The notes under the pieces: model-generated
Database searches by the model: none
What the model saw: only the letters and a program-made list of their open reading frames with translations
What the model was told of the DNA's origin: nothing
In this document: positions 51,698 to 52,053 of the stretch, one piece after another
Layout of the letters: each line of letters opens with the position of its first letter
Numbering within the stretch: position 1 is the stretch's first letter
Position numbers and translations under genes: made by a program
Assembly (NCBI GenBank): GCA_964577305.1
Contig: CAZNYS010000005.1
Span: forward strand, 36,193 to 100,192
Length of the DNA: 64,000 bases
Source of the DNA: an uncultured Rikenellaceae bacterium
GTDB taxonomy: Bacteria > Bacteroidota > Bacteroidia > Bacteroidales > VadinHA17
Reading direction: 5' to 3'

Positions 51698-52053
51698 GGT
51701 GCTGAATAACAATAATCCAAACATTACTCCGGTTGGATATTTTCAGCACCCCTTTTAAGTGGTTTTTGTGGAATCTCATGCGGGGCGAATCATTCATAAA
51801 GGGCGCGGAAAAATTCATCACCCTTCGATGCGCCCTTCGGGCTTACTCAGGGACCTTTGGCCGGTGGAACGAAACTGCTTTGAGTACCAGAATAGTAATT
51901 GTCAAGGATTATCAATAAGTGGGACTGCCATTGAGATGAACGATGCAACTTAGTGCTGGCAGGAAACACCAATTAGTGTACTAACCCAAGGTCCCTGAGC
52001 GCCCTGACTGAGCGACTTGTGCTGAGATTGTCGAAGCAAGCGATAGTCAGGGC
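51698..52053. repeat. Repeat-family copy B: leader hairpin, core, IR-bracketed ~150-bp segment, distal stem
   Basis: A leader hairpin pairs ggtgctgaa with ttcagcacc (51698..51750), and the core lies at 51754..51829. IR-L is ctcagggacctttgg (51846..51860) and IR-R is cccaaggtccctgag (51985..51999). A distal stem pairs gccctgact (52001..52009) with agtcagggc (52045..52053). The element ends 12 nt from the FISUMP gene stop. Confidence 0.8.

Follow-up and report, generated by a model that had tools for sequence, protein, structure and literature searches.

A non-coding repeat of modular build, confined to a narrow lineage of uncultured Bacteroidales, was found in five copies (A to E) within the window, the whole 64-kb stretch of an uncultured Bacteroidales genome analysed here, and in related loci of about 270 kb, bringing the sequence examined to about 330 kb of the clade. 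The copies have a modular anatomy on the minus strand, follow an orientation rule with respect to the upstream gene and are polymorphic between strains. The reading favoured here, with a probability of about one half, is that of a lineage-restricted 3' trailer and terminator module on the minus strand that spreads by recombination between its copies; a 3'-UTR or terminator-linked element was one of the options offered by the original prediction and is the best-fitting among them. Read 5' to 3' on the minus strand, the element consists of an optional palindrome, a variable core, an invariant box and a terminator hairpin, and is sometimes headed on its 5' side by an AT-rich flank. The imperfect palindrome spans about 220–280 nt, with outer arms CACCCUUCGA/UCGAAGGGUG and inner arms CUCAGGGACC/GGUCCCUGAG, and a variable core of about 45 nt lies between it and the box. 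The A-rich box of 24 nt (AUCACAAAAACCACUGAAAAGGGG) is separated by a spacer of 8–12 nt from the terminal hairpin, which is GC-rich, has a 10-bp stem and is followed by a U-run. The coordinates of each copy are given in Table 1.

Table 1. Coordinates of the element copies and their parts in the 64-kb window.
Feature	Position	Strand	Details
Copy A, core only, type I	41414–41492	-	box 2 41414–41437; box 1 (TCGAAGGGTG, minus strand) 41482–41491
Copy B, 3' end	51698–51750	-	AT-rich hairpin TCCAA..TTGGA 51716–51737, U-rich tail on minus strand
Copy B, core, type I	51751–51829	-	box 2 51751–51774; box 1 51819–51829
Copy B, long imperfect palindrome	51816–52036	.	P1 arm CATCACCCTTCGAT 51816–51829; P2 arms 51846–51860, 51986–51999
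Copy C, terminator hairpin T	52831–52857	-	GCCACCUGUC-UAAUAAU-GAUGGGUGGC, then UUUUAAAAUAUU (minus strand)
Copy C, core and truncated palindrome-arm remnant	52868–52985	-	type I core 52868–52946
Copy D, terminator hairpin T	55437–55463	-	two stem mismatches; then UUGUUAUUUUUUUU on minus strand
Copy D, core, type II	55474–55553	-	
Copy D, long imperfect palindrome	55541–55822	.	P1 arms 55541–55551 / 55812–55822; P2 55585–55594 / 55727–55736
Copy D, AT-rich 5' flank	55823–55870	-	GGGATTAATAGTGATTGTAAAAATCATTATTATTTATCTCAAATAGCC (minus strand); common to short copy L012 B'
Copy E, terminator hairpin T	58024–58049	-	then UUUUUAUUUG on minus strand
Copy E, box 2 and E-type 5' domain	58058–58217	-	box 2 58058–58087; 5' domain 58088–58217

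The five-copy intergenic family is real. With up to 3 mismatches, the motif CCTTTTCAGTGGTTTTTGTGAT occurs at 41414, 51751, 52868, 55474 and 58060, always on the plus strand; for this 22-nt motif, five matches compare with none expected and none in 100 shuffles, and neither an nhmmer profile nor a covariance model located a sixth copy in the window. Copies A, B and C are 94–99% alike inside the window genome and share a core of about 78–80 nt, as the original prediction had it, with 4–5 mismatches over 80 nt (end positions included) rather than the 1–3 claimed. Between A and C identity reaches 98.7% over 77 nt (41416–41492), with sharp ends. The description of copy D, with both core ends kept and a diverged middle, was accurate, and copy E is indeed shortened to one core end, of which about 30 nt rather than about 25 nt are kept. 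The interval 41410–41672, presented as a single copy A, mixes the 79-nt core with other GC-rich hairpins and the terminator of the 41733–44069 gene, all of which lie outside the repeat family.

The absence of a known RNA family was also confirmed. Rfam 15 gave no match in the window at the gathering threshold, and at E ≤ 10 nothing between 41000 and 59000 overlapped any core, hairpin or palindrome; two weak matches at E ≤ 10 fell on an unrelated terminator (41607–41713). Copies in nine related loci were without a match, with only a tRNA and a group II intron recognised elsewhere in those loci. Given the lack of any Rfam match, a known RNA family, a ribozyme and a group II intron remnant were rejected. 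The claim that the element is non-coding likewise holds, as ORFs over the core diverge right after the common part: plus-strand ORFs over cores A, B and C have only the repeat in common, and minus-strand mini-ORFs differ between D and the related copy E'. A one-genome-per-species GTDB scan with a three-block pattern returned only a chance match inside an ABC-ATPase gene, and the element was not found in viral contigs, plasmids or phages. A metagenome scan returned 28 loci, 8 of them real (7 distinct) and the remainder unrelated terminators, and the motif strings gave only chance matches in published papers.

The hairpins previously reported for C, D and E are present, each leading into a T-rich run when read on the minus strand; the equivalent in copy B, with an AT-rich stem in the terminator position, had been missed. 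In the MFE structure this stem is nested within a GGTGCTGAA/TTCAGCACC hairpin (51698–51706 / 51742–51750), and the 3' end of copy B scores 55.9 bits against the box and terminator model. Copy A scores only 28 bits against the covariance model because hairpin T is absent, its box pairing instead with flanking bases (AACCACT/AGTGGTT, 41410–41427); the copy in L017 also has no separate hairpin. The intrinsic-terminator form, a stem-loop with a U-rich tail on the minus strand, is seen in C, E, E', both L012 copies, L015, L018, L020 and L045, and more weakly in D. At L035 a different hairpin followed by U7 occupies the terminator position, so that six pairs are changed on both sides. The hairpin loops differ in sequence and in length (4–7 nt) ahead of the U-rich tails, and RNAalifold retains the stem.

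Pairing within this stem settles, as far as sequence can, the functional strand that the original prediction had left open, and points to the minus strand, that of the neighbouring genes. In six copies (C, E, both L012 copies, L018 and L020) the minus-strand stem has eight Watson–Crick and two G·U pairs with no mismatch, whereas on the plus strand the same 10-bp stem contains two A·C mismatches. This asymmetry, in which a minus-strand G·U pair becomes an A·C mismatch when read from the plus strand, marks the minus strand as the functional one. The corresponding totals for all 11 rows were 83/23/4 on the minus strand versus 83/1/26 on the plus strand, with the L045 and L036 rows aligned out of register. 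A 10-bp stem, a variable loop and a U-run on the minus strand together suggest that the hairpin is an intrinsic terminator. A plus-strand promoter or leader was rejected, given that no plus-strand gene comes after any copy and the promoter consensus is absent.

The position of the element relative to genes follows the same polarity. All 12 assessable copies (A to E, both L012 copies, L015, L017, L019, L020 and L035) have a co-oriented gene or tRNA-Asn on their upstream side; genes on the downstream side occur in both orientations, and none of the copies is placed between divergent genes. One copy for each pair of co-oriented genes, as originally described, applies to C, D and E, which separate four co-oriented minus-strand genes (52065–58724), but not to B, which ends the array between the convergent genes 48892–51618 (+) and 52065–52673 (-). 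Nor are the flanking genes unrelated: 53004–55394, 56055–57965 and 58272–58724 are TPR paralogs, and 55962–56054 is a pseudo-copy of the 5' end of 53004–55394. Genes of the array encode TPR, TIR-like and Fib_succ_major proteins, with a G+C content of 0.36–0.42 across 52–59 kb versus 0.41–0.47 in adjoining sequence, and those beyond it an amidohydrolase, an amino-acid permease and a chorismate-binding enzyme. The array of L019 is bordered by tRNA-Asn and a partial tRNA duplicate, and tRNA-Asn and PfkB are what lies beyond it. A tRNA-Asn-derived att site, for which GTCGAAGG in the T-arm and the tRNA beside E' had given a hint, was rejected, as local alignments were no better than shuffles. PADLOC gave nothing meaningful that would link the element to a defence system.

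Copies B and C start 12–19 nt past the stop codon of the upstream gene (19 nt for C and gene 53004–55394) and D comes after a pseudo-gene fragment, so that these three look like 3' UTRs. At A and E the upstream gene has its own terminator, resulting in a two-terminator arrangement. The 5' domain of copy E, which is different from that of other copies, starts directly past the terminator of 58272–58724 (58218–58239). Downstream of the hairpins, the start codon of 53004–55394 lies 43 nt past the copy D hairpin, and the U-run of copy E overlaps a promoter-like TTTG(58017–58014)-N20-TATATTTA(57993–57986) upstream of 56055–57965.

The box is the sole fully invariant block in 11 aligned copies and is conserved above the neighbouring gene. 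At the orthologous E locus of L015 the coding sequence is 71–73% identical, compared with 94% for box and spacer and 90% for the hairpin. A structured RNA with one conserved core fold, as had been envisaged, was not upheld, since the predicted stems of type I (A to C) and type II (D and relatives) differ. The candidate core stems CCCUUUU/AAAAGGG and UGGUUU/AAACCA were discarded because they are lost in type I cores, L012 C', L017 and L018, and through the deletion in the L045 core, from which 23 nt are missing. With no conserved core fold, the box may work at the level of DNA instead of RNA.

Copies B and D, for which the earlier account was incomplete, also hold the long inverted repeat, which is not present in A, C or E apart from the remnant in C. 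In copy B the palindrome includes a small UUCG-type hairpin (51832–51842) and a degenerate P1 partner, GTCGAAG (52030–52036); that of copy D folds at -133 kcal/mol, with z = -4.7 on the minus strand and z = -3.4 on the plus strand. Independent dispersal of the palindrome was rejected, as its arms never occur without a core in about 330 kb. The 125–150 bp interior of copy B is inverted relative to those of D, E' and L045 (81% identity to L045 when flipped, 69% unflipped), which a purely strand-specific RNA role for the palindrome does not predict.

Strains differ by whole units of gene and element, making a recombination module possible. In L012 a gene 97% identical to 52065–52673 lies between two other versions of the element, whose cores in the orthologous B and C positions are of type II, and 53004–55394 is missing together with one element. 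In L045 the gene 56055–57965 and the TIR-like gene are adjacent; at this junction point the window holds a 564-nt element-containing insert and a 93-nt duplicated 5' end. Homology to L012 and L045 breaks off no more than about 10 nt from the box edge. For copy A, with its sharply bounded 77-nt tract in an unrelated spacer, insertion is an easier explanation than gene conversion. An empty copy A site in relatives proved uninformative, as the 93–95%-identical relative has a group II intron and the 84–88%-identical one an extra gene there. Variant contigs L002 and L004 switch context inside copy E and could be assembly chimeras at the repeat. A separate MITE-like element is present in the window at 11227–11404.

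Under the trailer and terminator reading, the hairpin would end transcription arriving from the upstream gene or, at A and E, past the upstream terminators, would end a short read-through or independent RNA. Termination may also insulate the next gene, as at copy E, where the promoter-like sequence starts within the U-run. Each transcript ended by the hairpin would carry an identical tail of box and hairpin. This tail is probably the selected part, most likely as a putative binding site for a protein or partner RNA, and its predicted roles are 3'-end stability or processing, or a source of 3'-derived small RNA. Spread and homogenisation would occur through recombination between copies, without a transposase of the element's own, and would be visible as gene conversion and as gain and loss of gene and element units.

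Independent expression of the copies as sibling small RNAs is unlikely; each copy would then possess a promoter and a variable 5' domain, with the box as target-pairing seed and the hairpin as terminator. Several observations are in its favour: A and E sit past the upstream gene's own terminator, the two-hairpin 5' domain of E is kept in L015, D and L012 B' share a conserved AT-rich flank on their upstream side, and the box is more conserved than adjoining coding sequence and is unpaired somewhat more often than the remaining RNA (mean about 0.55 versus about 0.41). However, a TAnnTTTG-type promoter is absent upstream of every copy on the minus strand, with matches only downstream of hairpins or inside the palindrome of D, and none of the gene starts in the window has a complement of at least 10 nt close by. 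The copies measure about 100 to about 450 nt, their 5' parts are unrelated, and B, C and D have the 3'-UTR-like positions described above. Near-identical sRNAs lie between the dual terminators of E. coli rrn operons (PMC8144298), and copies A and E likewise sit between two terminators. With such 3'-UTR-derived and sibling sRNAs, the element has in common a conserved segment just upstream of an intrinsic terminator and several paralogous copies per genome; it differs in its unrelated 5' parts, in the palindrome of about 220–280 nt that some copies have, and in that no promoter or target was found. A non-autonomous mobile element of MITE, REPIN or PATE-like type, served by a transposase in trans from elsewhere in the genome, is less likely again. 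The near-identical tract of copy A with its abrupt ends, the long inverted repeat with its interior in both orientations, and relatives 84–95% identical that lack copy A or have other insertions there would agree with mobility, and the MITE-like element shows that such elements exist in this genome. Against this, and against the classical MITE or PATE of the original prediction, no target-site duplication could be read from the sequence at the four junctions inspected (B, D, E' and L012 B'), the whole unit is not bounded by a terminal inverted repeat (the one it carries is internal, optional and never apart from a core in about 330 kb), and orientation relative to the upstream gene is fixed in 12/12 copies, unlike in MITEs. 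Pfam scans of the 40 longest window ORFs, which before position 40000 covered 33 of the 36 ORFs with a length of at least 120 aa, gave no transposase, recombinase or RAYT gene. The copies are few and clustered, and the hairpin starts with GCCACC and has no adjacent GTAG of the kind that heads REPs and REPINs. GTAG-headed hairpins of unrelated sequence occur in the related lineages L036, L046 and L049.

That the element is instead a recombination site of a cassette array, attC or rAID-1-like and acted on by a site-specific recombinase in trans, is improbable. According to Ross et al. (preprint 10.1101/471110), an rAID-1 array comprises two or more co-directional genes of low G+C, repetitive sequences in the spacers between them and an XerD-like tyrosine recombinase gene at its 5' end. 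The likeness lies in the co-oriented, lower-G+C genes with a repeat between them, four copies separating or ending such genes over 7 kb and C, D and E providing the at least two sites between co-oriented cassettes expected of an integron array; in the variation of L012 and L045 by gene and element units with breakpoints near the box edge; and in the tRNA-Asn and partial duplicate beside the L019 array. Yet the window and the related loci examined yielded no integrase or XerD-like gene, beside the array or otherwise, the box has no dyad symmetry, and no R''/R' core sites of the symmetric GTTRRRY type are present. The palindrome measures about 220–280 nt versus 55–150 nt for integron attC, the genes are TPR, TIR-like and Fib_succ_major genes rather than the immunity genes of rAID-1, and A, L017, L020 and L035 are found away from arrays of this kind, single copies being present elsewhere too. 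Breakpoints do not fall at a single fixed nucleotide, and homologous recombination between repeats of at least 50 nt accounts for identical patterns. Also improbable is a version in which box and hairpin form gene-cassette junctions in Bacteroidales from environmental metagenomes and the nested palindrome is a second, invertible recombination substrate; units such as 53004–55394 with D, or 52065–52673 with C, would be excised and re-inserted at the 24-nt box, and the recombinase, with no adjacent integrase, would be encoded elsewhere. Least probable is that the palindromic part is an invertible, phase-variable DNA switch with the inner arms as recombinase sites. Its size and the length of its inverted repeats are what is usual for invertons. 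B, D, E' and L045 have identical inner arms, CTCAGGGACC(TTTGG)/(CCAAA)GGTCCCTGAG, and interiors only 60–80% conserved; the arms resemble the perfectly conserved 10–15 bp inverted repeats around 125–150 bp of Bacteroidales invertons, a further likeness being the two orientations among copies, with B flipped relative to the other three. In contrast to invertons, the aligned interiors contain no conserved TAnnTTTG promoter box in either direction, no invertase gene lies nearby, and the segment sits upstream of a terminator that separates it from the downstream gene. Contigs from six samples show one orientation only at B and at D, never both at one locus, and a single past inversion by repeat recombination suffices for the flip.

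The trailer and terminator module can be placed among mosaic intergenic repeats, which include BIME/REP of E. coli, BOX of S. pneumoniae, the enterobacterial ERIC and the Correia elements of Neisseria. Like these, it combines short non-coding modules of lineage-specific sequence in varied ways, lies in transcribed spacers at gene 3' ends, forms stable hairpins, has palindromes in long and short (internally deleted) forms, and belongs with elements for which effects on termination and mRNA 3'-end stability have been proposed. It differs in its dissimilar sequence, in lacking a GTAG head, a TA duplication or a whole-unit terminal inverted repeat, in its single orientation relative to the upstream gene, in its canonical terminator with a U-run, and in copies that are few and clustered in about 330 kb. 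Its best-conserved part is an unpaired-looking 24-nt box, not a palindrome. With its invariant box paired with a terminator hairpin, the element is a new but fairly ordinary example of mosaic intergenic repeats.

For the Bacteroidales, this example joins a class of mosaic, lineage-specific intergenic repeats described chiefly in Proteobacteria and Firmicutes, with an unusually clear organisation in which an invariant box lies at a fixed distance upstream of a terminator. A shared tail that bound a protein or gave rise to a 3'-derived sRNA would provide a handle on post-transcriptional control in this phylum, which is not known to have the classical sRNA chaperones. The repeat also marks recombination breakpoints in a variable gene cluster and probably gives rise to chimeric joins when metagenomes of the clade are assembled.

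The motif CCTTTTCAGTGGTTTTTGTGAT, allowing three or fewer mismatches, matched the window five times, always on the plus strand (41414, 51751, 52868, 55474 and 58060), and was absent from 100 dinucleotide-preserving shuffles, bearing out the proposed five-copy repeat family (copies A to E). Neither an nhmmer profile nor R1, the covariance model built for the repeat, detected a further copy in the window. Repeat finding and alignment gave A, B and C a core of ~80 nt, close to the ~78 nt of the original prediction, with four to five mismatches over 80 nt rather than one to three; A and C are 98.7% identical over 77 nt. 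As described, copy D shares the ends of this core and diverges in the middle, copy E keeps only ~30 nt of it (~25 nt had been suggested), and C, D and E carry the gccaccc...aggtggc hairpin. Interval A (41410–41672) does contain a core, but its right two-thirds consist of other hairpins and the terminator of the 41733–44069 gene. Two claims about the surroundings failed: not every island copy separates co-oriented genes, as B sits between convergent genes, and the flanking genes are not all unrelated, as three genes of the copy-rich island are TPR paralogs and 55962–56054 is a 93-nt pseudo-copy of the 5' end of one gene. The 58272–58724 ORF (150 aa, TPR), paralogous to the C-terminal end of 56055–57965 (repeat families D4 and D6; ~71% identity), is probably a gene fragment.

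Read on the minus strand, the hairpin has a 10-bp stem, GCCACCUGUC-loop-GAUGGGUGGC. In six copies all ten positions pair, eight as Watson-Crick and two as G·U; both G·U pairs of these copies turn into A·C mismatches when the plus strand is read. Over 11 rows, of which those of the related loci L045 and L036 are out of register, pair totals were 83/23/4 for the minus strand versus 83/1/26 for the plus strand. Loops of 4–7 nt differ between copies in both sequence and length, a U-rich run follows the hairpin, and RNAalifold recovered the stem. At the same position locus L035 has a different G+C-rich hairpin with U7, six pairs being changed on both sides, and copy B has an AT-rich equivalent with a U-rich tail. 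From its sequence the hairpin is predicted to act as an intrinsic terminator on the minus strand, which also carries the neighbouring genes.

Table. Parts of the repeat element in transcript (minus-strand) direction
Part	Sequence or description	Coordinates or copies
(a) AT-rich flank		55870–55823 in D (minus strand); also L012 B', a short copy
(b) Long imperfect palindrome, optional	Outer arms P1 CACCCUUCGA/UCGAAGGGUG; inner arms P2 CUCAGGGACC/GGUCCCUGAG	
(c) Box 1	UCGAAGGGUG, the 3' arm of P1	
(d) Variable stretch	~45 nt	Type I in A–C; type II in other copies
(e) Box 2	AUCACAAAAACCACUGAAAAGGGG; sole block invariant across all aligned copies	
(f) Spacer	8–12 nt between box 2 and terminator	
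(g) Terminator	Last part of the element	B 51716–51737; C 52831–52857; D 55437–55463; E 58024–58049

The palindrome, whose interior between the P2 arms spans 125–150 nt, is full length in B, D, L045 and E' (a copy in L019 and L002), partial in L012 B' (P1 around 37 nt), truncated in C, and absent from A, E and other copies. Neither the window nor ~270 kb of other loci contained its P1 or P2 arms without the core; the palindrome belongs to the element as an optional component and is no dispersed MITE of its own. Copy D folds much better than its shuffles on both strands (z = -4.7 minus, -3.4 plus). Predicted core stems are not kept between core types and 23 nt of the core are missing from L045, which suggests that the core would act through its sequence and not a shared fold. 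Elsewhere, a 178-nt intergenic element (11227–11404), bounded by 18-bp terminal inverted repeats (GGGGCTGTCTCATAAGTC / GACTTATGAGACAGCCCC) and containing GC hairpins, has an 89–97% identical copy in another gene context (L002 1638–1778 and L019 11840–12048); it looks MITE-like and is unrelated to the box/terminator repeat.

In 12 of 12 assessable copies the upstream neighbour, a gene or in L019 tRNA-Asn, is co-oriented with the element, and downstream neighbours are co-oriented or convergent; no assessable copy lies between divergent genes. Copies B and C start 12–19 nt past a stop codon, and A and E are located after the upstream gene's own terminator. In copy E the U-run after the hairpin overlaps TTTG-N20-TATATTTA, a sequence near the Bacteroidetes promoter consensus and 21 nt upstream of the 56055–57965 start codon. 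Because of its position relative to stops, terminators and promoter-like sequence, the element is placed at transcript ends, right before the expression signals of the next gene. The U-run and promoter-like region (TTTTATTTGAC...TATATTTA...ATG) upstream of TolB-like/TPR genes (57966–58023; L046 2400–2480 and 5560–5640) is conserved between paralogs and distant genomes, the hairpin before it being lineage-specific. Two GCGYTAATTCGT boxes ~22 nt apart make up an ‘aattcgt’ module (~55885–55950), a possible regulator binding site that is kept in L012 (4481–4560) and, at 79%, upstream of a TPR paralog in distant L046 (2201–2258).

At the orthologous locus upstream of 56055–57965 in L015, coding sequence is 71–73% identical versus 94% for box 2 and spacer and 90% for the hairpin. 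In the window genome A, B and C are mutually 94–99% alike, whereas in L012 the 52065–52673 gene is 97% identical, yet has type II cores on both sides; these sequences point to homogenisation within a genome. L012 also lacks 53004–55394 and one element, and an IS21-like transposase gene there (~1914–3322), called by eye from an N-terminal helix-turn-helix motif and a TGT-type end, has the terminator hairpin of one of the element copies ~90 nt away. In L045, 56055–57965 and an intact TIR-like gene (a weak assignment: TIR_2, E=0.016, below the Pfam cutoff) are 3 nt apart; at this junction the window has a 564-nt insert, containing the promoter-like region, hairpin, copy D, palindrome, flank and ‘aattcgt’ module, and a duplicated 93-nt 5' end. 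The intact gene stands in L045 at the equivalent of 55962–56054, which indicates that arrival of the element-containing segment cut the original gene short. The pseudo-copy there (minus strand) is 80% identical to the 5' end of 53004–55394, its ATG 3 nt past the 56055–57965 stop.

L002 and L004 are 99.8% identical to the window up to 58078, inside copy E, and beyond it resemble L019, with a full-length element and then tRNA-Asn, as a result of either recombination or chimeric assembly at the repeat. In L002 (~4150–4200 and 3977–4051), a partial duplicate of the tRNA-Asn 3' end beside E', ~120 nt from the intact tRNA-Asn gene, may be an integration or excision scar. Copy B carries its palindrome interior in the opposite orientation to D, E' and L045 (81% identity to L045 flipped versus 69% unflipped). 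After the 40533–41291 ortholog, where the window has copy A, L048 (1770–1845; also L047 ~4735–4810), 93–95% identical to the window, has a group II intron (in L048, Rfam RF00029, 56 bits) with a reverse-strand ORF.

The window is chromosomal DNA from an uncultured member of the Bacteroidales/Bacteroidota, with SusC/SusD genes, many glycoside hydrolases and a housekeeping sigma factor, and Pfam scans of 40 of its ORFs found no transposase or integrase. Two adjacent short ORFs (1631–2377 and 2440–3147), in each of which a TonB-dependent-receptor Plug domain is the sole domain, represent either receptors that are truncated or a pair of an unusual sort. Many JGI metagenomes independently yielded assemblies of the window sequence, and close homologs of its proteins are labelled Bacteroidales or Bacteroidota MAGs. 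The repeat matched no Rfam family in the window and related loci, and nothing in plasmid, phage and viral-contig collections; a pattern scan covering a single genome for each species gave just one match, a chance one inside an ABC-ATPase gene. A metagenome scan yielded eight copies at seven distinct true loci, L012 (two), L015, L017, L018 (the same locus as L030, counted once), L019, L020 and L035; L045 and a decayed L036 copy came from protein-anchored look-ups. L038, L046 and L037, whose 56055–57965 homolog is ~70–77% identical, lack the repeat and have other hairpins in the same places. The repeat therefore appears confined to a narrow clade, of which ~330 kb of sequence were covered. The scanned DNA collections hold only part of the source-sample contigs, so locus counts give no estimate of copy number; copy A also lies on Ga0315553_10000594, which the metagenome scan did not return. 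In related lineages, GTAG-headed palindromes (GTAGAGACGTTGC..., GGGGTAGAGATC...) that look like REP-type elements occupy equivalent intergenic places (L036 9620–9650 and 17965–17995; L046 5555–5580; L049 4755–4850).

The repeat is of a known kind, the mosaic intergenic repeat, like BIME/REP, BOX, ERIC and Correia elements of other bacteria; its sequence and box-plus-terminator organisation matched nothing in any library searched. In position it is like the 3'-derived or dual-terminator sRNAs (PMC8144298). A cassette recombination site is a weakened explanation, given that no integrase was found, the box has no dyad symmetry, solitary copies exist, and the recombinase defining rAID-1 clusters (preprint 10.1101/471110) is missing. 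The two facts that a shared 3' trailer/terminator module explains least well, the sharply ending 77-nt tract of copy A and the inverted palindrome interior in B, keep alive a MITE origin of the repeat and an inverton in its palindromic part.

Such a shared 3' trailer/terminator module is the best fit to the facts shown because of the minus-strand terminator in fixed orientation behind genes, the invariant box that keeps a fixed distance to the hairpin, a conservation exceeding the neighbouring gene's, and the modular variants. The strain comparisons, together with the absence of a transposase, recombinase, terminal repeat and target duplication, suggest that the module would spread via recombination between copies. 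Transcripts would end at the hairpin, and the box would be a candidate binding site for a protein or RNA, possibly the source of a 3'-derived sRNA.
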